Source: a virus (taxonomy: Duplodnaviria > Caudoviricetes). From it: a stretch of DNA of 64,000 nt. Every line of letters begins with the position of its first letter. Positions within the stretch are counted from its first letter, which is position 1. The notes under the pieces were generated by a model. The model worked only from the letters and a program-made list of their open reading frames with translations, did no database searches and was not told the DNA's origin. This document shows, one piece after another, positions 22,758 to 64,000 of the stretch. The stretch covers positions 64,001 through 128,000 of IMG/VR virus record IMGVR_UViG_3300032053_000004, one strand, 5' to 3'. The translations under genes were made by a program, and so were the position numbers.

Positions 22758-24008
22758 ATGCCTATGGATATCCGTAAAGTAGCTTCCAGAGTTGCGATCG
22801 CTAGTGGTCAAGTTAGGACCGCTGGTGTTATTCAATTCCAAAAAGACCAAGGCCCGGTTCGACGTGACATCCGTGTTGATGGGTATGAATGGACTCCTGA
22901 TAGTCTCCGAAATCTAGCCAAAATCCTGTGGGCGTCTCAAAGAGCCCATAGTTATGCCATGTCGGCGTTTAGAATTTTTTCTAAAATGCCATCCTCTCAG
23001 TTCAGCCCTGATGGTCTCATGGGCGGTCGTGGATATATACAATCTATCAAAGATTTGCGTGCGAATTTAGCAAGCTCTGTTGAAATATTATCTTCTTTTA
23101 CTGATACTGTCCATGACGAGATAAACGCGGATCACTGGCGTACAGCTGGTGATTCAGAAGAAGTTTCAGAAGAAGTTTCGGACGCTGTTGAAGACGCTGC
23201 AGATATTAAAGCAAACCCTGAACAATTTGTAGAAAACGAATATACTGAAGAAATTAAGAATCCGGATCCGGATGATTATAATCCATCTGTTGAGTCGGAT
23301 GAGGAAGAAGAAGACGACGAAGAGGATGAAGATTCCTCCGGATTTTCGCAGACTTCTTCAAAAAGAGAAAAAGACGAAGAATTAAAAAAAAAGTTAAGTC
23401 AATCGGCTTTGCCGACTGATGAGAAAGAACAAAGCGTCGGTCTTTCTGATGTAGAAAAACTGATGCATACAACTTCTAGTTATGATGAAATCATCAAGAA
23501 AAAACATATAATTCGTCGTATTGCCAATTCTATCCAATCAATCCCTGGCGGACTATATCCGAACCCTGTTCTTGATCGTCGTGGCCCGGGAGCAGGTACT
23601 GGAGACTTCGGATCCGGTTATAATCCGCCTTGTGATGCTCCATCCGATGATCCGATGGGCGATGGTATGTCTAGCGGAGTTGAAGAAACTCAGTATTTAT
23701 ATGAAGGTCCTGATGCTAATGGAGATGGCGTTACAGGGTACGATGCTCCAACGACCGGGGATCTGACTAAATTAAAAACTTCTGCGGAAAGAGTTGCTAG
23801 AGTTGAAGGATATTCTTGGCTTCCTGGTTCCAGGAACGAGAAGAGTATGGATTATTATCAAAGAGGTTTATCCGATATTGATGTAGCATGGATGCGCGCC
23901 CATGATTCTCCCAATTTAGGAGAGATTGATCCTGACGCTGTGCAGCGGAGGAAAGATAGGGAAGTTTCCAGTCTATTTTGGGATAAAGGAATAAATCGTG
24001 CCTTCTAG
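22758..24008 (+). CDS. acidic putative internal head protein
   Basis: 416 aa; KVASRVA at the N-terminus, RTAG twice, D/E-rich tracts. Confidence 0.8.
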   Translation: MPMDIRKVASRVAIASGQVRTAGVIQFQKDQGPVRRDIRVDGYEWTPDSLRNLAKILWASQRAHSYAMSAFRIFSKMPSSQFSPDGLMGGRGYIQSIKDLRANLASSVEILSSFTDTVHDEINADHWRTAGDSEEVSEEVSDAVEDAADIKANPEQFVENEYTEEIKNPDPDDYNPSVESDEEEEDDEEDEDSSGFSQTSSKREKDEELKKKLSQSALPTDEKEQSVGLSDVEKLMHTTSSYDEIIKKKHIIRRIANSIQSIPGGLYPNPVLDRRGPGAGTGDFGSGYNPPCDAPSDDPMGDGMSSGVEETQYLYEGPDANGDGVTGYDAPTTGDLTKLKTSAERVARVEGYSWLPGSRNEKSMDYYQRGLSDIDVAWMRAHDSPNLGEIDPDAVQRRKDREVSSLFWDKGINRAF

Positions 24009-25146
24009 TTTACCTACAGAAAGTGCTCTTCCGAAAGCTGTTAAGGATTTCGGAATTGGCCCTTATGATGCTTCTTTATCCGATTCACTTCATGGGGAAG
24101 ACGATGAAGGTCGGGACGGTCCGAAAACATCTTTACCAGATGGTGGCGGATCAACTGCTATCTCCCCCGAACTTTTAATTAGTTATCCATCCAATAGTTC
24201 TCCTAGATCTTCATCTGCATTAATTCCTGGAGACTATGATAGACCGCCCTCTAGTCCTCATGATGACAGAAAAAGAGGAATTTATTTATCTCAATCCAAG
24301 CTTCCTGACGGGTTAGAACCCTCAGCAAGATCAGATTATTATGATCATATGACTACTGGACAAAATGGGAAACATCCTCCCGGGCAAAGTATAAATGATA
24401 TATGGCCCTCAGAAAACTCTGGGGTTTATGCTCAAGAAGATAAAGAGGGATGCGATTCACTCCCATCTCCTAATAAAAACGATTTTTCTCATGGAAATAC
24501 TTTAGAACCTTATGGAAACGCTTGGTCTGGTTATGGGGTTGAAGATTTAAGTCAATTTACTGGAGCTCCGAATGCTCCCGATTTATATTACGAGCAGACT
24601 AACGAGCCGAACTCTGGAGGTACGATTTTGTCGAACATTAAACCGTTTCATTTAAACTCGGTTCTTTCATCTTTCGCAAAAGATGAAATTTCTCTTGGAG
24701 AAACTGTAGATCAATTGGATATTTATTTGAATAGTGCAGACAAGGTTAAATCAAATTTAAAAGTGTCTAAGACAGCCACTGATTTGGAAGCTTCAGGTAA
24801 GCTTGCTTCTGAAGTTTTGAAAGAATATGGGAAGAAGGATTTAACTCGTCGTCAAATCCTTGAATACCTCCAAAATAATGGTCTCGGTCATAAACAGTTT
24901 TTAGCCAGTGATATTATACGGTGTCTTAAACACCGGCATGAAGTTTACGTACAGGATAATATGGATACCTTCCCAATCGCCAAAAACGCTAGTGAGAATA
25001 GTTTAAGAGGTATTCACGCACAGCTCGTGAATCTTCATGTTGCTCATTCTCATATCCCTGAAGCTTCCGAAATTCTTTTAGAGTGCTCTGCCAGGATAGC
25101 CAAATCAATGGCTTTGGCTGAAAAGTCCGAGAGTCAAAATGGCTAA
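23998..25146 (+). CDS. low-complexity putative head-associated protein
   Basis: 382 aa; S/P/D-rich N-half, then KTAT and a helical C-terminal domain. Confidence 0.75.
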   Translation: MPSSLPTESALPKAVKDFGIGPYDASLSDSLHGEDDEGRDGPKTSLPDGGGSTAISPELLISYPSNSSPRSSSALIPGDYDRPPSSPHDDRKRGIYLSQSKLPDGLEPSARSDYYDHMTTGQNGKHPPGQSINDIWPSENSGVYAQEDKEGCDSLPSPNKNDFSHGNTLEPYGNAWSGYGVEDLSQFTGAPNAPDLYYEQTNEPNSGGTILSNIKPFHLNSVLSSFAKDEISLGETVDQLDIYLNSADKVKSNLKVSKTATDLEASGKLASEVLKEYGKKDLTRRQILEYLQNNGLGHKQFLASDIIRCLKHRHEVYVQDNMDTFPIAKNASENSLRGIHAQLVNLHVAHSHIPEASEILLECSARIAKSMALAEKSESQNG

Positions 25147-27055
25147 GAAAATAGACGTATCAACCGGAATTGGTGATATAACGGACATCCTGAATGATCA
25201 GGGTGTTGCGGATCTTTCCTGGTTGAATGTCAGTGAAGCTGACTATAGAGCTTTGGAAACTCTTCCTAAGCAGAATCTTGATATGATTCCTGAGCTTTCT
25301 CATGCCTTGACTAGAGAGCCGGGTAGCAATGTCCCGTTTGTAATTCCTATACGTCCTAATGTTATTGTAAATCAACAACCGAGTCTTGGATGGAGTCCTC
25401 CTCGGGATACAACCTCTCCTGTTCGTGATCGGGTTTCCCGCCTTGTTATGGCCGGACATAAGCCGTCTGAAATTCAAGAGAAGCTTTCTCTTGAATTTTC
25501 TAATAAACAAATTCAGCTAGCCGGCTCCTTGATCAAGGAGGTTATCCAGGAGAGAGGTCTTCTGGGAAACGTTTATATAAATTCTGCTCATTTTCCTCGT
25601 TGTTCTCAAGGTTACTCAGAAGATAAAAAATTCGTAGCTTCTCACGCTAAGGAAGCTCTTTTTATTCTTGCAAAAGATGAGTGTGCTGGGTGCGTATGTG
25701 CTCGAGGCGGTACTTGTTCGGTATTTAAGAAGAGAATCACTAGTTCCATACCATATGATGATAAGACTCTTTCCTATTATTCTCCAAAATTAGCTTCCGA
25801 AGGGAAGACTATTTCTAAGGATGGTAATGCGAAGGTTCGTCTTCGTATGGCCTTCTTGGATAATCCAAGAAGAGTGTCTTCTGAGCCTGTCCTTAGGGTC
25901 CAAGAACAACACCATCCTAAACCCGTTCAAGCATCTGAAGCATCCGTCAAAGCCTATTTGGAGCGTGCGGCGACCCCTTCAACGAAGGTAGAACCTCTTC
26001 CAAGCCCGTCTTATATGGCTTATGCCCGCCGGATGATGGCAGGAGCTAATGATACTAAGATTTTAACCGGTTCCCCCGACCCTGATCTTCGGAAGCTTGC
26101 TGGTTTATATGGAATATTAGGACATACGTATCTAGATATGGATGTTCTTGGAGGATGTCGGAATACCGTTGCTTTTGTTAAAAAATATGGGTCTCCGGAT
26201 TTTATTATTCGCAGAAGAGCTGTTTGTGAAATATGTAAGGGGCTTCCTGACGGTGGTTGTGCCCAACTCTGCCATTCGTCAAGAATCGTTTCCAATACCC
26301 CTACTGTAGGGAAGGTTGCGTTTTTAGGCGCTGTTGAACGAGCAGTTCTTGAGAATCGTTTAACTACTAAATTAGCATCTTCTATTGTTTCTTCAATTAA
26401 ATCTGACTCTAATAATTGGGGTCGTTTAACTGCTACCATCAACCTTTTTAAGCCTGGGAATAAAGAAACCCCTATATATGAAAAGGGCAGCGTTTCTTTC
26501 TTCCATGGGAGCACCAGTTCTGAAAATACTTCTGTCGATATAGACCCTGAAGAAATTCGGAGATTTATATCTCATCTTATGAATACCGGAATGCGTGGTC
26601 AGAGTTTGACTTCTGCAGTCCTTAGTCGCTATACTAAATCAAATTTATCTGAAAATCCTACGGCAGTCCGTTCAGCGGCTGAAAACAATGGAATTCAAGG
26701 TTTCTATTATATAGATCCTACTGCTTATAACGATTACGGTCATGGTTGTACAGCGGGTTCTTCTCAATTTAGGAAGCGCGGAGCTAAATATATATTAGCT
26801 AGTTCTTCTTGCACCGGGTGTGTTCTTCAAACATCTCCTGGATGGTGCTCTAAATATGCTAAAGAAATGATCCGGCAGGTGCCGGAGTCAGTAAAAGCTG
26901 ATTTTAAGAAAAAGTCCCTACCGGTAATTCATGCCGCTGTTGAAAATCCGGTTGAAAAATATCAACTTGATGATGGCATGAATTTCGATGTTTCGGGTAG
27001 TTCGAAATCTGTTTTAGATATAAATATTTCGCATCCTGAATTGCAAAACATATAA
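25139..27055 (+). CDS. protein with three internal 4-Cys repeats (putative Zn or Fe-S)
   Basis: Three copies of G-x-x-G-x-x-Y-[IL]-[ND]...C...CxxC-x6-7-C. Confidence 0.8.
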   Translation: MAKKIDVSTGIGDITDILNDQGVADLSWLNVSEADYRALETLPKQNLDMIPELSHALTREPGSNVPFVIPIRPNVIVNQQPSLGWSPPRDTTSPVRDRVSRLVMAGHKPSEIQEKLSLEFSNKQIQLAGSLIKEVIQERGLLGNVYINSAHFPRCSQGYSEDKKFVASHAKEALFILAKDECAGCVCARGGTCSVFKKRITSSIPYDDKTLSYYSPKLASEGKTISKDGNAKVRLRMAFLDNPRRVSSEPVLRVQEQHHPKPVQASEASVKAYLERAATPSTKVEPLPSPSYMAYARRMMAGANDTKILTGSPDPDLRKLAGLYGILGHTYLDMDVLGGCRNTVAFVKKYGSPDFIIRRRAVCEICKGLPDGGCAQLCHSSRIVSNTPTVGKVAFLGAVERAVLENRLTTKLASSIVSSIKSDSNNWGRLTATINLFKPGNKETPIYEKGSVSFFHGSTSSENTSVDIDPEEIRRFISHLMNTGMRGQSLTSAVLSRYTKSNLSENPTAVRSAAENNGIQGFYYIDPTAYNDYGHGCTAGSSQFRKRGAKYILASSSCTGCVLQTSPGWCSKYAKEMIRQVPESVKADFKKKSLPVIHAAVENPVEKYQLDDGMNFDVSGSSKSVLDINISHPELQNI

Positions 27056-27077: not shown

Positions 27078-27647
27078 ATGGGTAATGTTTCGAACCGTAA
27101 TAATGGAAAAATCTTAAGATTACCTGGCGGATCGGAGGTAAATTCTTCAGATATAGGGGCAGAATATGTCGTTGGGCAAGGCGGGGACATGCCTTTGTCC
27201 GAAATCGTTGATCCAACTGACGCTAGTAAAGATTATAGAGAACGTGAGATATTTGTCCAAGATGAACAAATAGTTCAAGCTGTCATCAATAAATCTTCAA
27301 CCTCCGACTTAATTGATATTGTTTTATTAGAAATATCAGAAGAATTATCCCATCTAAAATGGGAGAGAAAACAATCAGCTCTGAATGGGAAATCAACCAT
27401 AAATCATACTATAGCTAGAATAGCTAGTCTTAAACAATTATCTGAAATTTTGATTAAAAGAAAAGAAATTAATTTAAATGATGATTTTAATTTAAAATCC
27501 CCCAAATTCCAAAAAGTATTTGAAATTTGGATGAATTTCTTCTATGACTCTATGGTTAAAGTTGGTGTAGACGAAAAAATCATAGATTTAGTTTTCAATC
27601 AAATGAAGGCAGATATGGTGGATTGGGAGCTTCAAATGAAGTCTTAA
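27078..27647 (+). CDS. helical protein, candidate terminase small subunit
   Basis: Product call rests on position upstream of TerL, size and predicted helicity only. Confidence 0.35.
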   Translation: MGNVSNRNNGKILRLPGGSEVNSSDIGAEYVVGQGGDMPLSEIVDPTDASKDYREREIFVQDEQIVQAVINKSSTSDLIDIVLLEISEELSHLKWERKQSALNGKSTINHTIARIASLKQLSEILIKRKEINLNDDFNLKSPKFQKVFEIWMNFFYDSMVKVGVDEKIIDLVFNQMKADMVDWELQMKS

Positions 27648-27660
27648 TGCTACTACCAAG

Positions 27661-28431
27661 GTGAATCCATTGATAGTTTATTGTCATATTCACGTTGAAT
27701 CAAACAGACGTTATATTGGTTTAACTAAACATTCCACCTTTTCAACGTGGAACAGACATGTTTATTCCGCAAATAAGATAAAGAATGGGAAATTTTATAT
27801 AACTAGTCATTTTTCGAATGCAATTAGAAAATATGGAAAGGATGCATTTTCCCATGAAATTTTAGGAAAAAATTTAACTTTGGAAGAAGCTAATGAATTA
27901 GAAAAAGAGAAAATTTTAGAATTTGATACTAGAAACCCAGAAAAGGGTTTTAATATAATGAAAGGAGGCGGATTTTATCAATCAAATAAAATAAAAAATC
28001 CTTGGGATAGACCAGAGTATAGAGCGAAGATGTTACCATTACTTCGTAAAACCCCAAAAACAAAAGCTAAAATATCCGCTTCTTTAATGGGCCACGTTAT
28101 GAATGAAGATACGAAGAAAAAAATATCTATCGCTGGTAAAGGAAAAATATTAAACTCTGAAATCAGGAAAAAAATCGCAGTATCAAATACTGGAAAATTT
28201 CATACTGTAGAATCGAAATTAAGAATGTCTAATATTCAAAAATCTATTGCGGCAACATCAGATTCTAAGGTTAAGAGATCAAAAGCGACTAAAGGCAGGA
28301 TTTTGAGTTTTGAAACTAAATTGAATTTATCGAAAATAAATACTGGAAAATCGATCTCTATTGAAACGCGATTAAAAATTTCCAATTCTATGAAGAAATA
28401 TAAAATGGAAAATTTATCATGCCTAGTGTAG
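27661..28431 (+). mobile_element. free-standing GIY-YIG homing endonuclease with NUMOD3-like repeats
   Basis: IVYCH......RYIG, AIRKYG, ANELE, GFN; repeated K.KIS.S..GK motifs; overlaps the TerL start. Confidence 0.9.
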
Positions 28432-30359
28432 AGAAGATCGAACAAAGCGTTTTAACGGGAACCATATCTGGTTTCTTGGATAAAAAACGATCTTCTCGAG
28501 CTCGAACCGAACAAGATTCAAATTTTCTAAATATTATTGATTTCATTGAAAGGTTTAAACTCCTACCTTATGGACTTTTTCCGGTTCAAAAATTTTTAGT
28601 CAAATTATATTATAGTATTCCCTTAGAAGATAAAGAAAAAACTATTAAAATAACTGATAGATTTAATACTAAAACTCTCTATAATTTGACTGAAGTTGAG
28701 TATCTTCATTATTTACACGACCAAGGTCGTTGCAATATTAAAGAACAAGATGAACGAATTCGAAATGAGTTAATTTTAGTTCTCGGAAGGCGTTCCGGTA
28801 AAAGTACTTTAAGTGCTCTTTTTGCAGTTTACGAAATGTATAAGCTTCTTTGTCGGGGAAACCCTCAAGCTTATTACGGTCTTCCTGCTGGTAACGAAAT
28901 ATTGCTTTTTTGTGTTGCTAACGATAAAGATCAAGCCTCTATCGTATATAACGAAATGAGTGGTCATATTGAGCAGATGGATTTCTTTAAATTTGCTCGA
29001 GCTAATTTTACTCAAACATATATTAGATTTAGAACTGATGCTGATAGACAAAAATTCGGAGAACGTGGAAAAGCTACTTTAAAAGCTACTTTCAAGAGTT
29101 CTATTGCTAAAGGCCTCCGTGGTCGCGGAACTATTCTTTTAATTTTAGACGAGCTTGCATTCTTTGTTGATAAGGGTAACTCTTCCGGAGAAAAAGTTTA
29201 CCGAGCGATTGTTCCTTCTACTGCTGCATTTTCTCCTAAAGACCCGATTAATAGACATATTCCACTAGGCCCATCTGACGGAAAAGTTGTTTCTATTTCA
29301 TCTCCCGATGCTAAAGAAGGGTTTTTTTATAAATTATATCAAACCTCTATGGAAAACTCTCCGGCCTCTAGAAATATGCTTATGATTCAAGCTCCGACTT
29401 GGGAAGTGAATCCAACTATTTCCAGTGATTATTATGAAGTTGAATATAGTAAAGATCCGAAGAAATTTGGAACTGAATTTGGGTCTGAGTTCTCTGACCG
29501 TGTTCGTGGTTGGATAGAAGATTCTAAAGATTTAACCGATTGCATAATTCCTGACCTTCGTCCTAAAACTCGTGGGATTCCGAGAAAGCCTCACTTTGCC
29601 GGGGTAGACTTTGGAATAGTTAACGACGGAACTAGTGTATCTATAACTCATTTAAATAATGGGAAAATTGAACTTGCATATCATGAAGTTTGGTATGCAA
29701 AAAAGAAATGGAAAGAATCAAACCCACATCTAGAGCATCCTCTTGTAGATTATGCGTTAACTCTTCAAGACAGAAACCGATTAGACCTCGATGCCATATC
29801 TGAGTGGCTAAAGATTCTTGCTAAAAATTTCTTTATTTATAAAGGAATTTTTGATCAATGGGCAGGTCCCGTTTTTGAGCAGGCGTTACATAAAAATGGT
29901 CTGACTCAGTTTGAACAACGAAATTTCTTTCCAACTGATTCTTCTAATATGTATCAGACATTCAAAATGTTTATGTACAATAAACAATTAGCACTATATG
30001 ACTGGCCTGTTCCTGAAGCTATATCATTTGATGCTAGTGCTTCCGTATTTCGTCATTCTCCGTTAATCTCAGAAATTCTTGAACTTCAGGCTTCTTCTGA
30101 AGGTAAAAATATAATTATAGTAGAAGCTCCGAAGGTTCCTGGAAAACACGATGATCAGTCTGACTCTATAGCTCGAAGTGTTCTTTTAGCTTCGGAGTAT
30201 ATTAAAGCTAACCCTGGTATATTGGAACATAACGTCACTATGTCAAATTTACCCCCAGGCGGGCCGTCTACCGGTTATCATCAATATTTGAAAATGAGGA
30301 ACAGGATGCATGGAGTTGTCCGGGAAAGAATTCCTCCTAGAATTCAGCGACGTCGCTGA
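28419..30359 (+). CDS. terL: terminase large subunit
   Basis: LFPVQK Q-motif, LGRRSGKS Walker A, LILDELAF Walker B, ISSP; nuclease motifs GVDFG, FDQW, HDDQSD. Confidence 0.95.
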   Translation: MPSVEKIEQSVLTGTISGFLDKKRSSRARTEQDSNFLNIIDFIERFKLLPYGLFPVQKFLVKLYYSIPLEDKEKTIKITDRFNTKTLYNLTEVEYLHYLHDQGRCNIKEQDERIRNELILVLGRRSGKSTLSALFAVYEMYKLLCRGNPQAYYGLPAGNEILLFCVANDKDQASIVYNEMSGHIEQMDFFKFARANFTQTYIRFRTDADRQKFGERGKATLKATFKSSIAKGLRGRGTILLILDELAFFVDKGNSSGEKVYRAIVPSTAAFSPKDPINRHIPLGPSDGKVVSISSPDAKEGFFYKLYQTSMENSPASRNMLMIQAPTWEVNPTISSDYYEVEYSKDPKKFGTEFGSEFSDRVRGWIEDSKDLTDCIIPDLRPKTRGIPRKPHFAGVDFGIVNDGTSVSITHLNNGKIELAYHEVWYAKKKWKESNPHLEHPLVDYALTLQDRNRLDLDAISEWLKILAKNFFIYKGIFDQWAGPVFEQALHKNGLTQFEQRNFFPTDSSNMYQTFKMFMYNKQLALYDWPVPEAISFDASASVFRHSPLISEILELQASSEGKNIIIVEAPKVPGKHDDQSDSIARSVLLASEYIKANPGILEHNVTMSNLPPGGPSTGYHQYLKMRNRMHGVVRERIPPRIQRRR

Positions 30360-30647: not shown

Positions 30648-30985
30648 GGTTGTCCGTGGTTAAGAATAATCTCGCTAATAACCTCGAAATCCAAGAAAAA
30701 GTCGAAGAAATACTCTCAGCACTTAAAAGTGTTCAATCTGATATTGATCACCAAGACTCCTCATTAAATAATATTATGATTAATCTTTCAAGGTTGGAAA
30801 GAACTATTAAATCGGACCGGAATCTAAGACGGTTTAGGTTTGATAAAAGAATTCATTTAGATACTTTTCTAAAATCTATACAATCTATGAAATCCCAGCT
30901 TTCCAAGACCTCTAAAGATATGGAAAAGGTTTGCGCTTCTCATAAGGATTCTTCGTGGATACCTGAAGAATCGGTATTTGAATAA
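30641..30985 (+). CDS. small helical hypothetical protein
   Basis: 114-aa ORF whose stop overlaps the portal start. Confidence 0.65.
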   Translation: MVRLSVVKNNLANNLEIQEKVEEILSALKSVQSDIDHQDSSLNNIMINLSRLERTIKSDRNLRRFRFDKRIHLDTFLKSIQSMKSQLSKTSKDMEKVCASHKDSSWIPEESVFE

Positions 30986-32799
30986 TGGCAAGTAAGAAAA
31001 AAATAGGGGTTAACCCTGCTGCTCAAACAACTAGTGGCGGAAGAGTCATTAAACACGTTGATGAACAGGAAGTGCCGAAAAGGCGCTTGACTCGTTTAGA
31101 GAAACAAGCTCGTCGTGAGATGTCTCAGTCTATTCGTTTAGCAACTGGTGGTGGTGGGAATGGGAATTTCGGGAACGCTGGAAGTTCTTCCATAACCAAT
31201 GCTGATTTTTCTTTTTATAGCCCGCAGTTATCTACAGATTTCCTTGAACTCCCCCAATCAGAACGTGAAAAAAGAGAACTTTTTCGTTTTTGGTACAATA
31301 CCCACCCTATAGTTGGAGCAGCCATAGATTTTCATACAGATGTTCCTATGAGCAAGGTTCGTCTTTCCCTTCCTAAAGGGAAAGACATGAAAAGAAATCG
31401 TCAGATTCAACATTTTTACGAGAACATGTGTAAACGTCTGAGGCTTTTTCAGACTTTATATGATGCTACTCATGAATACTGGCTACACGGGAATGTGTTT
31501 GTTTTTTGTGAAGATCAGGAAGTTGATATTCCTGAAGAAATGCTTGTTGACGTAAAACAGGAAGAGGTCGGAGAAGTCGATTATGCCGGGAGGCCTCAAA
31601 AACGTATTGAAGTAGTAAGAGAACCAAAATCTCAATCTGAACAAATTTCAGCTATCAAAGATTATGTTGCAAAACATTATGAAGGATGGCAACGTCTTCA
31701 AATTTTACCCCCGGAACAAGTTAAACTTGAGGTGTTTCAATATACGAACAAAGTTAAGATGGAGCTCATACCATCTGAAAAAGATCGTTTAGTTGTCTTA
31801 AGAGCCCAAGAACAGCATGATGAGGAGGCTGCTCGTATCGCAGATGATATCCCTGAACAGATCAGGGAAAATCTTCTTAACGGTCAGCCAATACCGTTAA
31901 ACTCCAGTCCTTATGATGACTTTTTCTGTTCTTCTTTTTGTTATCATTTAGCGCATAAGAAAAGTCCATATGATGATCGTGGTATTTCAATTCTCGAGAG
32001 ATGCTTAAGAACTCTCCTATATAGTGATAAACTTCGTCAGTCTCAGACGAGTATAGCGAGTCGTGCTATGACGCCCAAACGTGTTGTTTGGGCGGATAAG
32101 ATGAGCTCTACAGACGTTGATGACTTAAGAGACCAAGTAGACCAAGCCCTAATAGATCCTGATTTTAGCATCATAACGAACTTTGAAGTCCATTGGGACG
32201 AGATAGGATCCAGAGACCGTCTTCTCGATCTCGGGACGGAGTATGAAATAAACAACAAACTTCTCATGATTGGGCTTAGAGTCACTGAACCTATGCTCAC
32301 CGGGGAGTCTTCATATTCTGGAGAAAGAATTCATTTAGATGTTATGAACACTATGTATCTGCTATATCGTGAAACTATATGTGAATTTGTTGAGCAATAT
32401 TTATTTGCCCCGGTGGCTGAAAAGAAGGGTTTCTTTGAAGAGGATGAATATGGAAATAGGAATCTTCTATATCCTAAATTACAATTTACTCGTTTAGCTC
32501 TCCGCGACAATACTGAACTTCAGGATTTCATGTTTAATCTTTATCAAAAAGGGTCTTTACCTATTTCTTTTATTCTTGATCTCCTCAATATTGATTCTGA
32601 TGAAGCTTCTGCTCAACTCAAGAAAGATATGTTTACCCCGAATGATTCTAAGTTTAATGATTTGATAACGAAAATTCTTGAATCGGTTGGTGAAGAAATA
32701 GCTAAAGAAACTGATGTTAAAGAGAGACTTATCAAAAATATGGGACTAAAAACGGTAACTAAAAAAGGAGATCGGTTTGCTGAAAAGGAGGAGGGCTAG
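30985..32799 (+). CDS. portal protein
   Basis: 604 aa downstream of TerL; HPIVGAAIDFH, YWLHGNVF, RGISIL, LKLQFTRL resemble portal motifs. Confidence 0.8.
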   Translation: MASKKKIGVNPAAQTTSGGRVIKHVDEQEVPKRRLTRLEKQARREMSQSIRLATGGGGNGNFGNAGSSSITNADFSFYSPQLSTDFLELPQSEREKRELFRFWYNTHPIVGAAIDFHTDVPMSKVRLSLPKGKDMKRNRQIQHFYENMCKRLRLFQTLYDATHEYWLHGNVFVFCEDQEVDIPEEMLVDVKQEEVGEVDYAGRPQKRIEVVREPKSQSEQISAIKDYVAKHYEGWQRLQILPPEQVKLEVFQYTNKVKMELIPSEKDRLVVLRAQEQHDEEAARIADDIPEQIRENLLNGQPIPLNSSPYDDFFCSSFCYHLAHKKSPYDDRGISILERCLRTLLYSDKLRQSQTSIASRAMTPKRVVWADKMSSTDVDDLRDQVDQALIDPDFSIITNFEVHWDEIGSRDRLLDLGTEYEINNKLLMIGLRVTEPMLTGESSYSGERIHLDVMNTMYLLYRETICEFVEQYLFAPVAEKKGFFEEDEYGNRNLLYPKLQFTRLALRDNTELQDFMFNLYQKGSLPISFILDLLNIDSDEASAQLKKDMFTPNDSKFNDLITKILESVGEEIAKETDVKERLIKNMGLKTVTKKGDRFAEKEEG

Positions 32800-38028: not shown

Positions 38029-39552
38029 ATGGCCTGGAAAAAGACCGCTAAAGCTATAGTTACTCATAATAATATTCAGTTTGATGAGTGGATGGATGAA
38101 CTCCGTCGTAATAACGAGGGGGCCGTACCTGAATCTCAAATAACTCGAGTAGCTAAAACAGTTTTACGTAAGGCTGACCCGAAGCAGTTTCTTTTAAGTC
38201 ATGCGACTATAGTCGCATCAGTTGATACTTTTACTCCGAAAAATGCTAAGACTGGGCGTCAAATGGCCCAGGGAATCCAAATTGATGTCAGATATCCGAA
38301 TTTCCGGATCAATAAAGAATGTCAAGAATTAATCAATAATAATGGAGATGCCTGGGATCGTTCTTTGCTTCTTTCTACGTATCGAACCTTCATAGGTGCT
38401 CAAAATTATTTAGAGCATATACAAGTTCCAGAGCTCTCAAAGGGATTTATTGTTGACGCTATTGCCCGTGATTTAGGTCATACTTGCTATATAGATATAT
38501 TAGTCGCTACTGATAGGAAACATCAAAAATTAGTTAATGATATTTTATCTGGGGATATTTCTGGTCTTTCAATGGGTTGTGTCTCTCTTTTTACTATTTG
38601 TACGAAATGTGGGAACGTAGCTGCTGACGACACTCAACTTTGTCCGTGTATTCAATATGAAGGAAAAGGAACCATTTTCAAAGATGAAAATGGGATGGAC
38701 AGTAAAATTGCTGAACTTGTCGGACATGTGAGTTCGCCAAATTCTAATCAATTTATTGAAGCTTCTTGGGTTCGTAACCCTGCCTTCCGTGGAGCTGTTC
38801 GTCGAAATATATTAAATCCCAACACGGATCAAATTGCGGCTAAACTTGATGTTGCTTCTCAAGTTTATGAAATACGTTCATCTCAACCATTACCTGACGG
38901 TTTGAAGAAAGCGGCTTCAGTTAGATTTGCAGAAGGGCAAGAAGATGATTCCGCCCAAGATGATTCCGCCCAAGATGATTCGGATTCTCAAGATCAATCT
39001 CAAGATCAGGGTGATGAATCATCAGACTCCGGGGCTGAATCTAAGATTGATGAACTTGTAAACAAAACTCAAGAGCTTTTGCTTGAGGGAATTGTTAAAT
39101 CCTTAACTGATAAACTCGGTCCAAAGCCGGAAGATGTCGGATTTGTACAAGCTCCTATTGATTTAACTAACGAAAACGACAATCTAGTCAGATCTTCAAT
39201 AGATTTTAATCGAAAGCTTCAGAAGGCTTTCCCGAAAAATGTTAAGTTGGTTAAATGGGCGACTCGAGCTTATAAAATTGTACATGAAGGTGGAGTAAAA
39301 TCCATTCGTGCAAACAAAATGAATCCACGTGATTTAGTCGCACTTTCTTGGATTGAAGACCGAATAAACAATAAAGTTTATAGTCCAATTTTATATAAAG
39401 CAGTCATGTCTGCCGGGCCGATCATCAAGTATCCAAGCCCAAAATCTTATTTGGCAGCTTGCAGAGTTAGGATTGGAAGAAACGTCTCTAATAAAGAGTC
39501 TAAGTTTCTTATTTGGAAGGGGAAAATTGCGTCTTTTGCAATTTCCAATTGA
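38029..39552 (+). CDS. prohead (capsid maturation) serine protease with C-terminal extension
   Basis: NYLEH, LSMGC and FIEASWVRNPAF resemble HK97/U35-type protease motifs; directly upstream of scaffold and MCP. Confidence 0.8.
   Translation: MAWKKTAKAIVTHNNIQFDEWMDELRRNNEGAVPESQITRVAKTVLRKADPKQFLLSHATIVASVDTFTPKNAKTGRQMAQGIQIDVRYPNFRINKECQELINNNGDAWDRSLLLSTYRTFIGAQNYLEHIQVPELSKGFIVDAIARDLGHTCYIDILVATDRKHQKLVNDILSGDISGLSMGCVSLFTICTKCGNVAADDTQLCPCIQYEGKGTIFKDENGMDSKIAELVGHVSSPNSNQFIEASWVRNPAFRGAVRRNILNPNTDQIAAKLDVASQVYEIRSSQPLPDGLKKAASVRFAEGQEDDSAQDDSAQDDSDSQDQSQDQGDESSDSGAESKIDELVNKTQELLLEGIVKSLTDKLGPKPEDVGFVQAPIDLTNENDNLVRSSIDFNRKLQKAFPKNVKLVKWATRAYKIVHEGGVKSIRANKMNPRDLVALSWIEDRINNKVYSPILYKAVMSAGPIIKYPSPKSYLAACRVRIGRNVSNKESKFLIWKGKIASFAISN
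38942..38981 (+). repeat. 15-nt tandem repeat (QDDSA)
   Basis: AAGATGATTCCGCCC x2 plus a partial third copy. Confidence 0.9.
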
Positions 39553-39672: not shown

Positions 39673-40911
39673 ATGCGCCAGCGTTCAACTTGGATCCGAT
39701 CAGCAAATGCACTACCCACTGCCCCGAAAGGGAAAGGGCGTCGTGCGGATATCTACAATATGAACCAGGAGCATCCACAGCCGTCTCCTGTTGAATACGA
39801 GAACGGAAGTCCGGACTCATGGGCAGAATCTCTTGCTCCGTATTCTCATATTGAAAAAGAATACGAAGGCGGCCATGTTAAGCGTAATGAGCTTAACTTT
39901 GCTGAATTCCGCGATGATACGTGGGATCACAAAGATGCCGATAAGTGGAACGGCAAAGGCAAGTACGATAACCATCGTAGTGCTTCCGAGCGTAAGGCTC
40001 AGGCTTGTGAGAAATTGGCGCGTGGTCTTCTTAAGACTGCCAATCCTAAGCTGATTGAAGATCAGGCTCTTGATTTCATGTGCCTTCCTCCTAACGTTGT
40101 AACGGCGACGATCAAGCGGATTCAGGAGACTTCTCCTGCAGCGCTTGCCCCCGCGAATCGTTACAATCGTGCATTGGCTTGCACTAAGCTTTCAGCTAAG
40201 ATGCTCGGAGACGAAGCTCCGGAGAATCTCGTTGAGAAGCTTGCCACGTTGTTCATGAATATTGATGACCCGACTCTGAAGTCCATGGTTCGGGTTGTTG
40301 CCTCGGTTCGTTTTGCTGAGCAGGATGAACAAGAGGAGCAACAGGAGCAACAGGGCCAGCAGGAGCAGCAGGGCCAGGATGAAGAGCAGCAGCAGGAGCA
40401 ACAGGGCCAGCAGGAGCAACAGGGCCAGCAGGAGCAACAGGGCCAGGATGAAGAGCAAGAGGAACAGCAAGAACAGCAAGCGCAAAATGAAGAATGCGCT
40501 ACTGGTTTGACGTCTGAAGAGATGTCCATGCTGGACCAAATGCTCAACCCGGGAATGGGTCAAGAAGCTCCGGGAATGGGTCAAGAAGCTCCGGGAGCTG
40601 AAGTTTCTCCACCGGCCATGCCAGCGATGGCCAGCGATTTCTCCATCTCCTTTGACGGAGATGATGACGGCTCAGAAGGTCTCCCTCATATATCGTCACT
40701 TGACGTTTTGTTCAATGACGATCCTGAGGTCCAGGCTCAACGTGAAATCGTTGCCGCTTCTCAGGAGCAACGGGCTCGTGAGCAAGGTGGATACTCGATC
40801 AGTCGTACTGCCTCTGCTAAGGGCGCAAAAAAGCTTGGTCAAGTCACTAAGCCCAAGGCCTCGAGCATTGATACGGCGCTCGAGAATCTCTGGGAGCGCC
40901 CAGGCGCGTGA
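39673..40911 (+). CDS. scaffolding protein (putative)
   Basis: Lies between protease and MCP; helical with a Q/E low-complexity tract; SD GGAGG. Confidence 0.7.
   Translation: MRQRSTWIRSANALPTAPKGKGRRADIYNMNQEHPQPSPVEYENGSPDSWAESLAPYSHIEKEYEGGHVKRNELNFAEFRDDTWDHKDADKWNGKGKYDNHRSASERKAQACEKLARGLLKTANPKLIEDQALDFMCLPPNVVTATIKRIQETSPAALAPANRYNRALACTKLSAKMLGDEAPENLVEKLATLFMNIDDPTLKSMVRVVASVRFAEQDEQEEQQEQQGQQEQQGQDEEQQQEQQGQQEQQGQQEQQGQDEEQEEQQEQQAQNEECATGLTSEEMSMLDQMLNPGMGQEAPGMGQEAPGAEVSPPAMPAMASDFSISFDGDDDGSEGLPHISSLDVLFNDDPEVQAQREIVAASQEQRAREQGGYSISRTASAKGAKKLGQVTKPKASSIDTALENLWERPGA
40318..40488 (+). repeat. Gln/Glu-rich tandem coding repeat (EQQGQQ)n
   Basis: Repeated GGAGCAACAGGGCCAGCA-type units. 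Confidence 0.9.
40549..40596 (+). repeat. 21-nt tandem repeat (PGMGQEA)
   Basis: CCGGGAATGGGTCAAGAAGCT x2 plus CCGGGA. Confidence 0.9.
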
Positions 40912-41823: not shown

Positions 41824-42708
41824 ATGTTCGGCGTTCAAGCAGTTGATAACTCCGTTAAGGAGTCAGTCGTTGACAAATTCATTGGTAGCCCGTCAGGACG
41901 TAAGCGTCTTGCGGCTTCCATGGTCCAGCCGCTCCGTGAGCGGAGGGACTACTCGTCCGTTGGCCGTAAGACCTTTTTGGTTGAACAGCTTCCGGATGGC
42001 GCTCTCCCGATTTACGATAAGGACCCCGATGTGGTCGCTTACGTGATCGGTGAGGAAGGCGAGTCGATCACCGCCGTGGCTAAGCCACGCCGTGTGATTT
42101 TCCCGCTTTTCGAGATCGCGGCCCTCCCCAAGGCCCCACTTACGCAGGTTAAGGAGCGTCGCTACGACCTTCTCAAGCGTATGCAGGATCTTGGTAAGGC
42201 TCAGATCCAGGCCGCAGAAGACGATCGAGTTTTCTCGATTCTCGATGCGATCGCGGTTAACGGATTCGACTCGCTTCCGGGCGGGACGAACCCGGATATC
42301 CCGGTTGTGGCTCCGCTCTCGCCGGCCGTCCTCGCGGACGCGTACGCCGAGATCGAGCGTCACGATCTCCGGGTGGCCCGCGTTTACCTGAACGCTACGG
42401 ATTATGCTGATATCCGTAAGTTCGGTCGCGACGTCCTGGACATTGAGTCCCAGGCGTCCCTCTGGAAGACCGGTATGATGGCAACTGGGTGGAACGCCCA
42501 GTTCATCGTGTCGCGTCTCGTTCCCGCAGGTGTCGTGTATTGTTGCTGCGAGCCCGAGAACTTCGGTCGAATCCCGGTCCGTACGGAGCTTACGGTTCTC
42601 TCGGCGGACAATCCCGAAGACCGGACAATCGGATTCTCGATGTTTGAGAACCTTGGGATTGGAGCATTCAATCCCCGCGGTCTCGTTCGTCTGATCATCA
42701 CCCGCTGA
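41824..42708 (+). CDS. major capsid protein (HK97-fold presumed)
   Basis: 294 aa after protease, scaffold and decoration genes; strong SD; strongly biased codons; followed by a terminator; C-terminal GIGAFNPRGLVRL. Confidence 0.85.
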   Translation: MFGVQAVDNSVKESVVDKFIGSPSGRKRLAASMVQPLRERRDYSSVGRKTFLVEQLPDGALPIYDKDPDVVAYVIGEEGESITAVAKPRRVIFPLFEIAALPKAPLTQVKERRYDLLKRMQDLGKAQIQAAEDDRVFSILDAIAVNGFDSLPGGTNPDIPVVAPLSPAVLADAYAEIERHDLRVARVYLNATDYADIRKFGRDVLDIESQASLWKTGMMATGWNAQFIVSRLVPAGVVYCCCEPENFGRIPVRTELTVLSADNPEDRTIGFSMFENLGIGAFNPRGLVRLIITR

Positions 42709-59156: not shown

Positions 59157-62100
59157 TTGTCAGTAGACAACCCAAGAGGTGCAAGAGGCTTTATCGGACC
59201 GACAGGCCCGGCTGGATCGACAGGTCCAACGGGCGCTATTGGGCCTGTCGGTACTCAAGGCTCTCCGGGTGCTCCTGGTCCAACTGGTCCAACTGGTGCT
59301 ATTGGTCCTATTGGTACTCAAGGTGTTACTGGGCCTCAAGGATCTCCAGGCCCCACAGGCCCGATAGGTCCGACAGGTCCGACAGGTCCGCAGGGTTCAC
59401 CTGGTTCACCTGGTTCCACTGGATTGATTGGACCTCAGGGGTCTCCTGGTTCACCTGGTCCCACAGGGCCTCAAGGTTCTCCCGGTGTAACCGGTTTAAC
59501 CGGAGCAACGGGTCCTCAAGGTTCCCCTGGTTCCCCTGGTTCCCCTGGCCCCACAGGACCTCAGGGATCACCTGGATCACCTGGCCCCACTGGACCTCGA
59601 GGAACTCAAGGGTCACCTGGTCCAACAGGACCACAGGGGTCTCCTGGTTCCCCCGGCCCCACTGGTGTAACAGGGCCTCAGGGCTCTCCTGGTTCCCCCG
59701 GCCCCACTGGACCCCAGGGTTCTCCTGGCCCCACTGGACCTCAAGGATCGCCGGGTAGTCCTGGTCCAACTGGACCACAAGGTTCACCTGGTTCACCTGG
59801 TTCACCTGGATCACCTGGCCCAACTGGCCCACGTGGTTCTCCCGGTTCACCTGGTTCTCCCGGTTCACCTGGTTCTCCCGGCCCCACTGGACCCCAGGGT
59901 TCTCCTGGCCCCACAGGGCTTCAAGGAACCCAGGGTTCACCTGGTTCTCCTGGACCAACTGGACCAACTGGACCCCAGGGTTCTCCTGGCCCTACAGGCC
60001 CTCAGGGTTCTCCAGGTTCTCCTGGCCCAACTGGTCCTACTGGACCCCAGGGATCACCTGGCCCCACTGGACCCCAGGGTTCTCCTGGCCTGCGTGGGGT
60101 TACTGGAGCTACCGGTCCAACCGGAGCGCGTGGCCCCACTGGACCAACGGGGCCAGTTGGACCAACGGGGCCTCAGGGTTCTCCTGGTAGTCCCGGTCCT
60201 ACTGGTCTGCAAGGCCCGATAGGATCCCCTGGTCCAACCGGTCCTCAAGGTTCTCTTGGATCCCCAGGTCCCGCCGGTCTACAAGGGCCGGTTGGTTCAC
60301 CTGGATTAACTGGACCTCAAGGCCCTCAGGGTTCTCCTGGCCCAACAGGACCAACAGGACCAATTGGTCCTGTACCTTCTTTTTATCCTGCTCCTGTTAG
60401 TACAGCTGTCTTTTCTGGTTTTCAGGCTACACATTCAATATTCACTTCAATTCCTAGCTCTTATATATCTTTAAATTTAAATTCTGAAGCTGATATTATT
60501 TCTTTCTTAAATGTTGCTATTGATTCTTCTGGTGGATCGGTAAACAACACTCCAATAATAAGAATTGTTATCGATAACATACCTGGACCCGAATTTCAAT
60601 TATTCAACGCAAACGCTCAACCTGAAAATTCTTCGGCGGCTTATGTTCTTCGTCGTCCTGCTGGCGTTCACACTTTATGGGGAGAGTGGCGTCGCTCGGC
60701 TGGTAATCGAGTTATGGTTTTGGAGAATGGCTCTCTCGTAGCTTTCTCCAATCAAGGGGTTCAAGGAGCGACTGGCCCACAAGGGCCAACCGGTCCCGCA
60801 GGTGCAACCGGTTCCCAAGGATTAATAGGTTCTCAAGGATTCCAAGGTTCTCCTGGTCCTATTGGACCTCAAGGTGCAACAGGACTGGTCGGACCGACAG
60901 GACCGATTGGTTCTCCAGGCCCGACAGGTCCTCAAGGTGCAACTGGTTTAGCAGGTGAAACTGGTCCTATCGGTCCTCAAGGAACTCAAGGAACAACAGG
61001 AACTCAAGGAGCAACAGGTGTCCAAGGCGTAACTGGATCGACAGGTCCTCAAGGCTCGATTGGTTCCCAAGGATCACCCGGGCCACCTGGTCCAACTGGT
61101 GCCCAGGGTGCAACTGGTGCCCAGGGTGCAACTGGTGTCCAGGGTGCAACTGGATCGACAGGTCCTATCGGTCCACAAGGAACTCAGGGTTCTCCAGGGC
61201 CAACCGGTCCGCAAGGTTCTCCAGGATCAACTGGTGCTGCAGGGTCTACGGGTGTTACAGGACCGCAGGGAAACCCTGGCTCACCGGGTCCTACTGGTCC
61301 AACCGGTCCTCAGGGTTCTCCCGGTCCGACTGGACCTCAAGGATCACCAGGTTCAACCGGACCACAAGGTTCCCCTGGTTCTCCAGGATCGACTGGCGCA
61401 GCAGGTTCCACAGGTCCTCAGGGTTCCCCTGGCTCACCTGGCCCCACTGGACCTCAGGGTTCCCCTGGGTCTCCAGGTCCGACTGGTCCTGCTGGGTCCA
61501 CTGGTGTTACTGGGCCCCAAGGCTCACCGGGGTCTCCAGGACCAACAGGTCCTCAGGGTTCCCCTGGGTCTCCAGGTCCGACTGGTCCTGCTGGAGCCAC
61601 TGGAGCCACGGGTCCTCAGGGCTCTCCAGGTCCTACAGGCCCAGTGGGTCCGACTGGAGTAACTGGGGCCACAGGGCCACAGGGTTCACCTGGTTCTCCA
61701 GGGCCAACTGGCGCACCGGGTCAGACCGGGGTTACTGGACCTCAAGGTTCACCCGGTCCGACTGGTCCTCAGGGTTCACCCGGTAGTACAGGACCAACAG
61801 GTCCTCAGGGTTCCCCTGGCTCACCTGGCCCCACTGGACCTCAGGGTTCCCCTGGGTCTCCAGGTCCGATTGGTCCTCAAGGTTTCCCAGGCTCACCAGG
61901 TCCAACTGGCGCCGCTGGCCCCCAAGGAAGTCCAGGTTCTCCAGGGCCAACTGGCGCAGCTGGGCCTACCGGTGTTACAGGTGCGACTGGGCCTCAAGGT
62001 TCACCTGGGTCTCCTGGCCCCACAGGCCCTCAAGGCTCACCTGGCCCCACAGGCCAAGCTGGTGCTACTGGCGCTCAAGGAAGCTCCGGATCCCCAGGGC

Positions 62101-64000
62101 CTACAGGAGCAGCAGGTCCAACAGGTCCAACAGGTTCCATCGGTCCTCAAGGAACTCAAGGAACTCAAGGTTCACTTGGCTCCCCAGGCCCAACGGGACC
62201 TCAAGGCTCCCCTGGACCGACAGGTCCCCAAGGTCTCACGGGTGTAACTGGTCCACAAGGCTCACCAGGTCCAACTGGTGCAGCAGGTTTTACTGGGGTT
62301 ACTGGACCTCAGGGTTCACCTGGTCCCACCGGTCCGGCAGGGCCTACTGGCGTTACGGGGCCTCAAGGTTCTCCTGGTCCGACTGGCCCACAGGGTTCTC
62401 CAGGAAGTCCTGGACCCACGGGAGCAGCAGGTCCAACCGGAGTTATTGGAGCCACTGGGCCTCAAGGTAGTCCTGGACTTACGGGACCGCAGGGCTCACC
62501 CGGTCTTACAGGTCCTCAAGGAAGTCCAGGCTCCCCAGGTCCAACGGGTCCTGCTGGATCTACTGGAGTAACGGGAGCAGCTGGCCCCGCAGGTGTCACT
62601 GGTGCAACTGGTCCTCAGGGTAGTCCAGGAAGTCCTGGGGCTACTGGACCTCAAGGATCACCTGGATCGCCAGGACCTACTGGACCTCAAGGCTCCCCAG
62701 GCTTGCCTGGCCCGACTGGACCTCAAGGCTCACCAGGCAGTCCGGGATCGCCTGGCCCTACGGGGCCACAAGGTAGTCCTGGTCCAACAGGACCACAAGG
62801 CTCACTTGGTTCTCCGGGCCCAACAGGTCCCCAGGGATCTCCTGGTAGTCCAGGTGTAACTGGAGTGGCCGGGCCTATTGGTGCAACTGGAGCTACTGGT
62901 CCTCAAGGCTCCCCCGGTCCTACTGGTCCTCTTGGATCTCCAGGTCCCATTGGACCTCAAGGGTCTCCTGGATCACCTGGCCCCACTGGTGCTGCGGGTC
63001 CACAAGGGTCTCCTGGAAGTCCAGGCCCCACTGGAGCAGCTGGCCCCACAGGTGTCACTGGTGCGACTGGGCCTCAAGGCTCACCTGGGCCACAAGGACC
63101 TCAGGGAACTCAAGGTAGCCCTGGTCCCACTGGGCCTCAGGGCTCACCAGGCTCGCCTGGTCCCACTGGAGCTATTGGAGCTATTGGAGCCACTGGTCCT
63201 CAAGGCTCCCCCGGTCCTACTGGTCCTCAGGGATCACCTGGCCCCACAGGCCCCTTAGGTAGCCCAGGAACACAGGGATCCCCAGGCTCGCCTGGTCCTA
63301 CTGGTCCACAGGGCTCTCCAGGACCTACTGGTCCACAGGGAAGTCCAGGTAGCCCTGGACCAACGGGTGCTGCTGGACTTACTGGTGTTACAGGCGCTAC
63401 TGGTCCACAGGGCTCTCCAGGACCTACTGGTCCACAAGGTTCACTAGGTAGTCCTGGTCCAACCGGTCCTCAGGGTAGTCCGGGATCAGCGGGGCCTCAG
63501 GGTTCGCCAGGACCAACCGGACCTCAAGGAGCAACTGGACCGCAAGGTTCAACAGGGCCACAAGGATCTCTTGGATCCCCAGGACCAACTGGGCCTCAGG
63601 GATCACCAGGACCAACTGGTATAGCTGGCCCCACTGGTGTCACAGGAGCAACTGGACCTCAAGGGTCACCTGGGTCCCCAGGTCCGACTGGTCCTCAGGG
63701 ATCACCTGGTAGCCCTGGACCAACCGGTCCGCAAGGTTCCCTTGGATCCCCTGGACCAACGGGAGCTGCTGGAGCCACAGGTGTCACTGGAGCCACTGGA
63801 CCTCAGGGTTCTCCGGGTCCAACCGGACCTCAAGGTTCTCCAGGTTCACTTGGCCCCACTGGGCCTCAGGGTAGCCTGGGTCCCACAGGGCCACAAGGTA
63901 GCCCTGGTTCTCCAGGTCCAACTGGCCCTCAAGGATCACCAGGAAGTCCTGGTCCTACAGGAGCAGCTGGCCCTACTGGTGTTACCGGTGCCACAGGCCC
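59157..64000 (+). CDS. very long collagen-like fibre protein with an internal globular domain (3'-truncated, missed by the ORF track)
   Basis: Frame open from TTG 59157 ([16 protein letters not shown]..) and still in Gly-X-Y phase at base 64000; about 128-aa non-collagen beta domain at 60375-60755. Confidence 0.93.
59178..60374 (+). repeat. collagen Gly-X-Y block 1 (about 133 triplets)
   Basis: Gly codons at 59178 and 60366 are 1188 nt = 132x9 apart; GPT/GPQ/GSP dominate. Confidence 0.95.
60756..64000 (+). repeat. collagen Gly-X-Y block 2 (at least about 360 triplets)
   Basis: Gly codons at 60756 and 63960 are 3204 nt = 356x9 apart. Confidence 0.95.

Follow-up and report, generated by a model that had tools for sequence, protein, structure and literature searches.

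Huge phages encode a protein with tandem four-cysteine domains next to the terminase genes

The Cys-repeat gene and its immediate neighbors

The stretch of DNA analyzed here, hereafter called the window, spans 64,000 bases (positions 64001-128000) of the 202,143-bp IMG/VR virus record IMGVR_UViG_3300032053_000004. CheckV puts the completeness of this record at 47%, which implies a phage with a genome of roughly 400 kb. The gene under study, here called the Cys-repeat gene (P0001; 25139..27055, plus strand), is an open reading frame (ORF) for a protein of 638 amino acids (aa) with three copies of a domain that contains four cysteines. A word-indexed search identified more than 110 full-length homologs, which are 38-79% identical to the protein and are located on contigs of up to 436 kb. 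Two minus-strand ORFs in the same region (25160-25510 and 26020-26514) were rejected as spurious, given the more than 110 conserved homologs of the plus-strand frame. The gene is present in one copy in the 202-kb record, and neither the N-terminal nor the C-terminal motif of its product, described below, occurs in any other protein of that record.

The Cys-repeat gene belongs to a single co-directional, tightly packed block that also contains the packaging genes. Its start codon (ATG) and the stop codon of the gene ahead of it, which encodes a protein of 382 aa, overlap by 8 nucleotides (nt), and the two genes are translationally coupled. The next conserved gene starts after a gap of 22 nt and encodes a helical protein of 189 aa (27078..27647, plus strand) without a match to any family. 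Downstream of it are the genes for the large terminase subunit, TerL (28419..30359, plus strand; phrog_2, E = 1e-21), and the portal protein (30985..32799, plus strand; phrog_16240, E = 5e-27). The original prediction, which was made from the letters of the window, had placed the Cys-repeat gene in a cluster just upstream of the terminase, and this position is borne out by the neighborhood.

Three copies of a domain with four cysteines

The 638-aa protein contains 14 cysteines, all of which are located in three clusters (residues 155/182/185/187/193, 340/363/366/374/378 and 537/558/561/570). Twelve of the 14 conform to one pattern, which reads C155-x26-C182-x2-C185-x7-C193 in repeat 1 (R1), C340-x22-C363-x2-C366-x7-C374 in repeat 2 (R2) and C537-x20-C558-x2-C561-x8-C570 in repeat 3 (R3). 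The generalized pattern, C-x15-30-C-x2-C-x6-10-C, has three matches in the protein; when the sequence was shuffled 100,000 times with its composition preserved, a single match arose in 597 cases and two or three matches in none. The repeat is not visible when the protein is compared with itself by BLAST. Profiles built from 50 homologs were aligned end to end by hhalign, with E-values of 1.3e-16 for R1 and R3, 1.4e-11 for R1 and R2, and 5.9e-8 for R2 and R3. No repeat was found at the DNA level within the gene, which argues that the triplication of the domain is ancient.

The repeat unit is about 125-155 aa long and comprises a head of four helices and, after it, a small alpha/beta lobe that carries the four cysteines. 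In the AlphaFold2 model of the whole protein (mean pLDDT 76.6), three domains were predicted with confidence, at residues 89-246, 285-440 and 468-593, each with a pLDDT near 90, and R3 modeled alone reached a pLDDT of 87.3 and a pTM of 0.80. The order of the elements is common to the three modeled domains. The four-helix head, which is shortened in R2, is followed by a strand at the motif G-x-x-G-x-x-Y-x-D, a helix that starts just past the first cysteine, a second strand and the C-x2-C knuckle, and the domain ends with a hairpin or turn carrying the last cysteine, a strand and a closing helix. R1 (25403..25876, plus strand) contains the four-helix head, the strand GLLGNVYI(D/N), a lobe with C155, C182, C185 and C193 as well as the additional C187, and two trailing helices. 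R2 (25991..26458, plus strand) combines the shortened head with the strand GILGHTYLD, a lobe with C340, C363, C366 and C374 as well as the additional C378, and a three-helix bundle. R3 (26540..26917, plus strand), with C537, C558, C561 and C570, is the most conserved copy.

The cysteine pattern, the profile homology among R1, R2 and R3 and the shared order of the modeled elements all support the three copies of a four-cysteine domain that had been claimed in the original prediction. The segments quoted there correspond to residues 140-204, 325-388 and 518-582 and read as given. However, the repeat unit is longer than these segments and starts at the preceding helix with the M-x-G motif, which had also been noted there, so that its extent had been underestimated.

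The remaining parts of the protein, which are residues 1-88, residues 594-638 and both linkers, were modeled with low confidence, and the model suggests that residues 1-88 are probably disordered. This region includes the core of an acidic N-terminal peptide (residues 24-57; 25208..25309, plus strand) with the motif DLSWL..Y..LPxQNLD..PEL, which has a pLDDT below 50 and is conserved in the 50 sequences, with W28, Y36, P43, Q45, N46 and D48 being invariant. The same motif is also found in distant members of the family, in the form of DLSWL or DLDWL, followed by Y, LPxQNLD and P-x-L. The acidic C-terminal tail (residues 594-638; 26918..27052, plus strand), with the motif NPVEKY(E/Q)L, is conserved and predicted to be disordered, and across the family the tail is acidic with an E-[FY]-x-L core. 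The mean net charge in the 50 homologs is +7.4 for R1, +2.5 for R2 and +6.7 for R3, as compared to -8.0 for the N-terminal end and -3.9 for the C-terminal end.

The conserved columns of the pooled repeats are limited to glycine, cysteine, an aromatic residue, aspartate, lysine and proline, and therefore no catalytic constellation is seen in them. A test for an HNH domain of the HK97 gp74 type was likewise negative: no histidine or asparagine column is conserved in the pooled repeats, and no HNH match was obtained in Pfam or PHROGs. The best explanation is that the protein is non-enzymatic.

Conservation of the cysteine site

All four cysteines of R3 are invariant in 50 of 50 homologs. In R1, C185 and C193 are invariant in the 50 homologs, and C155 and C182 are lost jointly in 11 of them. 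These 11 sequences contain a new cysteine in a GGCGG insertion and always have Cys187, which yields the pattern C-x5-C-x-C-x5-C, so that R1 appears to keep four cysteines through a rewiring of the site. Position 187 is occupied by C, H, K or R in the remaining R1 sequences. In 15 of the 50 homologs, hydrophobic or small residues take the place of all four cysteines of R2 at once. We also counted the cysteines in 671 domain instances taken from 255 proteins. The canonical set was present in 566 of these and the rewired set in 39 (605 full sets), while 34 instances had at most one cysteine and 32 had a partial set. As far as can be judged from the sequences, the tetra-Cys site is under selection.

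All-or-none loss, swapping of ligands and exchange of cysteine for histidine are the behavior of a structural zinc site in metalloproteins. Since the cysteines are lost in an all-or-none manner or rewired, their pattern fits a structural metal site, as had been suggested from the spacing in the original prediction. The exchange of C and H at position 187, together with the all-or-none loss, makes us lean toward zinc, which is probably the metal.

Like the classical Cys4 zinc modules, including that of P2 Ogr, the domain has four cysteine ligands with one C-x2-C knuckle, and its small lobe is presumably also folded around the metal. It differs from these modules in that the first ligand marks the start of a helix 21-27 residues upstream, and the last ligand is part of a hairpin 8-9 residues further on. 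The zinc ribbon has two CxxC/CxxH knuckles on two beta-hairpins, whereas each unit here contains a single C-x2-C and the other two cysteines are isolated. No zinc-ribbon or treble-clef structure is present among the listed Foldseek-PDB or VIA-align matches, which does not in itself exclude such a fold.

Comparison with known families and folds

The domain, which had been described as unrecognized, is new to the current sequence and structure libraries. The whole protein, individual domains, distant family members and profiles were all used to search Pfam, PHROGs, NCBIfam and the PDB sequences, and nothing above noise was obtained. A match to TerS_N, the N-terminal helix-turn-helix (HTH) of the G20C small terminase, was obtained for one of 108 domain sequences (E = 0.0015-0.003, 18-19 bits versus a cut-off of 27) and was dismissed as chance. 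Sequence matches to eL42 (E of about 0.3) were not significant, and one distant member had a weak Pfam match to RecX_HTH3 (E = 0.04).

In the structure searches, Foldseek found no match at E <= 0.001 in the PDB for the whole model or the domain, the best E-value in BFVD was 0.06, and the best TM-score in a search of the ESM Atlas by shape was 0.44. Look-alikes of the protein in the ESM Atlas provided no usable match, and the Cys lobe had no match in four structure libraries. The combination of AlphaFold and Foldseek, which had been recommended as a check on the repeats, thus gave one predicted architecture for them and no match to a known domain. Aligned with VIA-align to 48,161 PDB chains, the R3 model reached a best Z of 4.0, for the helical head only. 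With the whole model, Z values of 5-6 were confined to two helical parts, namely the R1 head and the generic three-helix bundle that follows R2, and the matches listed by Foldseek itself had a Z of 2.0 when re-aligned. The Z values from the fold searches fall in the chance range by the calibration of the tool, and a missing match is no proof of a new fold. The R1 head (residues 88-136) resembles the three-helix repeats of RecX, with a Z of 4.9, a root mean square deviation (rmsd) of 2.4 Å over 49 residues and 14% identity, and also with a Z of 4.6; these scores are at chance level for helical bundles, and the Cys lobe is located outside the alignment.

Distribution of the family and conserved gene order

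The pooled-repeat profile matched 687 proteins at E <= 0.001, of which 526 at E <= 1e-10, in a search against 1.84 billion cluster representatives, which makes the family a large one, with at least 687 clusters at 50% identity. The number of matched stretches per protein ranges from one to eight, with eight in one protein of 1583 aa. The single-domain members that were inspected are located on short contigs and resemble fragments of genes. Among 185,579 prokaryote species, represented by one genome each, the domain is present on only two contigs from metagenome-assembled genomes, JBAZJM010000002.1 and DATBQC010001048.1 (L013/L014), which were binned as Lentisphaeria and Methylobacter. These are probably mis-binned contigs of huge phages, with the bins as possible hints to the hosts, and the family therefore looks phage-restricted. 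When three family members were used as tblastn queries on 50,697 phage records, the only record retrieved was LR745208.1. This uncultured 485-kb phage also has the TerL that is closest to TerL of the window in these records (45% identity), followed by that of the cultured phage Tunturi_5 (27%). The family member in LR745208.1 is located about 2.8 kb upstream of TerL, with three ORFs between them.

The order of the Cys-repeat gene, a gene for a helical protein of 160-200 aa and TerL is shared by the contigs L001 (436 kb), L002 (205 kb) and L012, and by LR745208.1 and Tunturi_5, with two extra ORFs ahead of TerL in LR745208.1. Contig L011, which encodes an eight-repeat member followed by a 160-aa gene, ends ahead of TerL. 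The conserved order spans deeply diverged loci, with an identity of only 34-63% between the TerL proteins and with different upstream genes; in L012, for example, the upstream genes encode a thymidylate kinase, a LexA-type protein, a RecD2-type helicase and a PRPP synthetase. In a clade of huge phages with genomes of 200-480 kb, the Cys-repeat gene is a core gene with a fixed place, and the neighbors with which its linkage is most deeply conserved are the terminase gene pair rather than the head-core genes downstream of the portal. We propose a family of huge-phage Cys4 tandem-repeat proteins, which is characterized by at least one domain of ~125 aa, conserved acidic ends and a position upstream of a 160-200-aa gene and TerL, all of which are found in P0001.

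The only relative that we identified in a cultured phage is gp348 (XOB77791.1) of Tunturi_5, a 309-kb myovirus of Tunturiibacter in the Acidobacteriota (PMC11924767), where it is annotated as a hypothetical protein. The pooled-repeat profile gave a weak match inside gp348, and a broader profile based on the 671 domain instances scored 33.6 bits (E = 1.7e-12) with two domains. Like P0001, gp348 contains tetra-Cys motifs, two in this case, and an acidic C-terminal tail of the EEFDM type, and the genes are arranged in the same order, with an exonuclease, a small gene, gp348, a 170-aa gene and then TerL. However, a 1080-aa DarB-like gene is located between the 170-aa gene and TerL (PP885688.1 302926-308281), and gp348 has two modules rather than three, no DLSWL motif and three KTAS motifs in its first 85 residues.

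The identity to the proteins encoded by L001 is 46% for the Cys-repeat protein, 50% for the 189-aa protein, 63% for TerL and 74% for the portal. The Cys-repeat protein thus evolves at the pace of its 189-aa neighbor and faster than TerL and the portal, which possibly reflects co-evolution with a DNA site or a partner. The 189-aa protein family is helical with a disordered N-terminal end that contains a conserved LIxFPGGK motif, and it has no match in Pfam, other family libraries or the PDB. The 189-aa protein is a candidate small terminase (TerS) or packaging partner; its candidacy as TerS is based on its position and on a weak lead from a feature search to T5_Terminase_small (score 0.84). A predicted complex of the full Cys-repeat protein and the 189-aa neighbor had a score of 0.00, which speaks neither for nor against binding.

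Further upstream in the window, the same block contains the genes for a clamp loader (16959), a 5'-3' exonuclease (18905) and a tandem sigma-70 region-4 protein (20218), and the five proteins encoded between the last of these and the Cys-repeat gene have no family match. The head block downstream of the portal contains genes for head proteins, followed by those for the prohead protease (38029-39552), the scaffold (39673-40911) and the major capsid protein, which starts at 41824.

Possible functions of the Cys-repeat protein

Our tentative reading is that the Cys-repeat protein serves as a DNA-binding accessory of the packaging machine. The protein would then be a string of basic globular modules, three in P0001 and one to eight in the family, placed between acidic and probably disordered end peptides. 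Each module would consist of the four-helix head and the alpha/beta lobe, clamped by the four cysteines around one metal, most likely a structural Zn2+, and the basic modules would bind DNA multivalently. The end peptides, which would probably fold only on a partner, may dock on packaging partners such as the 189-aa protein, TerL or the portal. In this manner, the protein could help to recognize, hold or hand over the phage DNA at the start of packaging, in a role like that of a partner or substitute of the small terminase, or of the zinc-finger packaging accessory factor of the herpesviruses.

The similarity to TerS is that the protein is encoded just upstream of the large terminase region, is fast-evolving and has helical heads of a DNA-binding type. 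It may also present its DNA-binding units multivalently, but by means of tandem repeats instead of a ring, and, unlike TerS, it is three to four times larger. There was no match to a PHROG for terminases, and the alignment with Sf6 gp1 (Z 2.0, rmsd 10 Å) is meaningless. The 189-aa neighbor is a better candidate for TerS than the Cys-repeat protein.

The closest functional precedent, by analogy and not by homology, would be the herpesvirus factor represented by ORF68 in KSHV (Kaposi's sarcoma-associated herpesvirus), BFLF1 in Epstein-Barr virus, UL32 in herpes simplex virus 1 (HSV-1) and UL52 in human cytomegalovirus, which is Cys-rich and basic and is likened to the phage protein by function only. 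KSHV ORF68 and HSV UL32 represent a packaging accessory factor with a novel fold that is stabilized by zinc fingers and binds double-stranded DNA; ORF68 is essential for packaging and absent from virions, one of the three zinc fingers is dispensable in some lineages, and the factor is said to have no counterpart in phages (bioRxiv 10.1101/2020.07.16.206755). The CCCH fingers of ORF68 are scattered in one helical domain, and the protein forms a pentameric ring (bioRxiv 10.1101/2020.07.16.206755). The one dispensable zinc site may be compared with the dispensable Cys site of R2. However, ORF68 has three CCCH fingers in one domain, whereas the phage protein has one Cys4 site in each of its tandem homologous domains. 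The ring of ORF68 has a basic DNA-binding channel, and the one comparable feature seen in the phage protein is that its modules carry a net basic charge. The ORF68/BFLF1 fold is not among the listed structure matches, and no sequence match was seen.

We consider it rather unlikely, as a more specific form of the packaging proposal, that the protein is a functional counterpart of the herpesvirus factor in phages, unrelated by descent and the first of its kind, or else a "linear small terminase", in which one to eight tandem metal-clamped DNA-binding modules replace the ring. The acidic ends would in that case tether the DNA to the terminase-portal machine, and the domain would represent a new metal-binding and DNA-binding fold that is core to the clade of huge phages.

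Several results weigh against a role as a DNA-binding packaging accessory. No DNA-binding or packaging protein could be linked to the domain by homology or by fold, and the resemblance of the helical head to structures in the PDB is that of a generic helical bundle (Z 4-5). Aligned by hhalign with the phage's own sigma-4 family, the helical head obtained a probability of 1%, and a sigma-4/LuxR-like reading of the sequence pattern was dropped at this value. No repeated DNA motifs or palindromes that could be binding sites were found above chance near the Cys-repeat gene. The adjacency to the terminase genes is weaker evidence than it appears, because the overall gene order is conserved in these phages, and a variable number of modules between fixed ends suits a structural virion protein equally well.

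A head-internal protein that is packaged into the virion is nearly as likely as a packaging accessory. Its ends would target the prohead by way of the core, the portal or the coat, and its modules would organize the packaged genome or be ejected with it. This would be consistent with the location of the gene at the start of the head-morphogenesis block, with basic modules between acidic ends and with one to eight modules between fixed ends, as in structural spacer proteins. Moreover, the DarB-like protein of Tunturi_5 is encoded two genes downstream of gp348, and DarB is a packaged anti-restriction protein of phage P1. The three KTAS motifs in the N-terminal 85 residues of gp348 also resemble the pattern [KR]-x-A-[SAGTE]. 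In P0001, however, matches to [KR]xA[SAGTE] occur at background density and mostly inside folded helices, the linkers between the repeats hold no conserved site, and the RFAE motif that is common to the protease, the scaffold and the C-terminal end of the portal is absent. The candidate core proteins with acidic/Gln blocks are all encoded downstream of the portal, whereas the constant neighbors of the Cys-repeat gene are the terminase genes.

The RFAE motif, followed by an acidic run, occurs as VRFAEGQE in the protease (residue 299), as VRFAEQDE in the scaffold (residue 213) and as DRFAEKEE in the C-terminal end of the portal (residue 597). Judging from these sequences, it is a sharper candidate for the site of cleavage during maturation than [KR]-x-A-[SAGTE], which is a loose pattern.

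It is improbable that the protein regulates transcription of the late genes or at a module boundary, as a multi-domain DNA-binding protein with metal fingers and a sigma-4-like partner. P2 Ogr is a zinc-finger activator of late genes, and RinA is a late activator whose gene is located just upstream of terS. In favor of this reading, the modules are basic and have helical heads, and the tandem sigma-70 region-4 gene is conserved upstream, at a distance of one to five genes, but the neighborhood in L012 contains no sigma-4 gene and yet retains the link to the terminase. With up to eight modules and with long acidic tails that are conserved, the family does not resemble known activators, the gap of 22 nt to the next gene leaves no room for a promoter, and no HTH family was detected.

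Another reading with little probability, and one that is partly independent of the other functional readings, is that the four cysteines are the ligands of a [4Fe-4S] or 2Fe-2S cluster in a protein that is redox-active or a cluster-dependent DNA-processing factor. The ligand pattern C...C-x2-C-x8-C is compatible with a cluster, and three consecutive clusters are plausible for a DNA-associated protein. Cluster sites of the type C...C-x2-C-x5-C are found in AddB/Cas4/Dna2, EndoIII/MutY and the WhiB-like proteins. In the Cys-repeat protein, however, the last spacer is 7-8 residues rather than 5, and no Pfam match to WhiB, Cas4 or Fe-S families was obtained. The exchange of C and H at position 187 and the clean replacement of all four ligands in R2 are typical of a structural zinc site. 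As compared to the WhiB-like pattern (PF02467), C-xn-C-x2-C-x5-C, the rewired R1 also differs, with C-x5-C-x-C-x5-C; WhiB gave no Pfam match up to an E-value of 5, and the ligands of the phage domain are modeled in a three-stranded alpha/beta lobe, as compared to the all-helical fold around the cluster in WhiB-like proteins. Tunturi_5, the cultured relative, has an aerobic host, and an oxygen-labile cluster would be a liability in an aerobic host if the protein were packaged.

Finally, an effector of host takeover or anti-defense that is merely located in the block is very improbable: the protein looks phage-restricted and is fast-evolving with a fold that has no known match, but its gene is a fixed-position core gene in every relative examined and not a patchy accessory, and the 202-kb record contains it only once.

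Almost all that is known of huge phages comes from metagenomes, and a role has been assigned to only a minority of their core genes. Should the Cys-repeat protein turn out to be a packaging factor, it would reveal in what way genomes of 200-480 kb are recognized and fed to the motor, and it would provide a phage counterpart for a herpesvirus factor that was said to have none. If it is packaged, giant capsids would have a new component that contains metal. The domain merits a family entry under either reading, and the cultured phage Tunturi_5 on Tunturiibacter makes the question bench-testable.

Other features of the window

The 189-aa gene and TerL are separated by an inserted gene for a GIY-YIG/NUMOD3 homing endonuclease (27661..28431, plus strand). 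L001, L002 and L012 lack this gene at the corresponding junction, and the insertion therefore looks mobile. The TerL of L002 carries an intein with a LAGLIDADG domain.

The two overlapping genes directly upstream of the Cys-repeat gene encode proteins of 416 and 382 aa (22758-25146), which have no match in PHROGs, Pfam or NCBIfam. Genes of similar size (431 and 395 aa) are located at the corresponding place in L001, and none are present there in L002 and L012.

An ORF at 59157-63998, which runs off the window, encodes more than 1600 aa with collagen-like G-x-y triplets (GSPGPTGPQ...). Because of this ORF, the G+C content climbs from about 0.35 to 0.58-0.63 at the end of the window.

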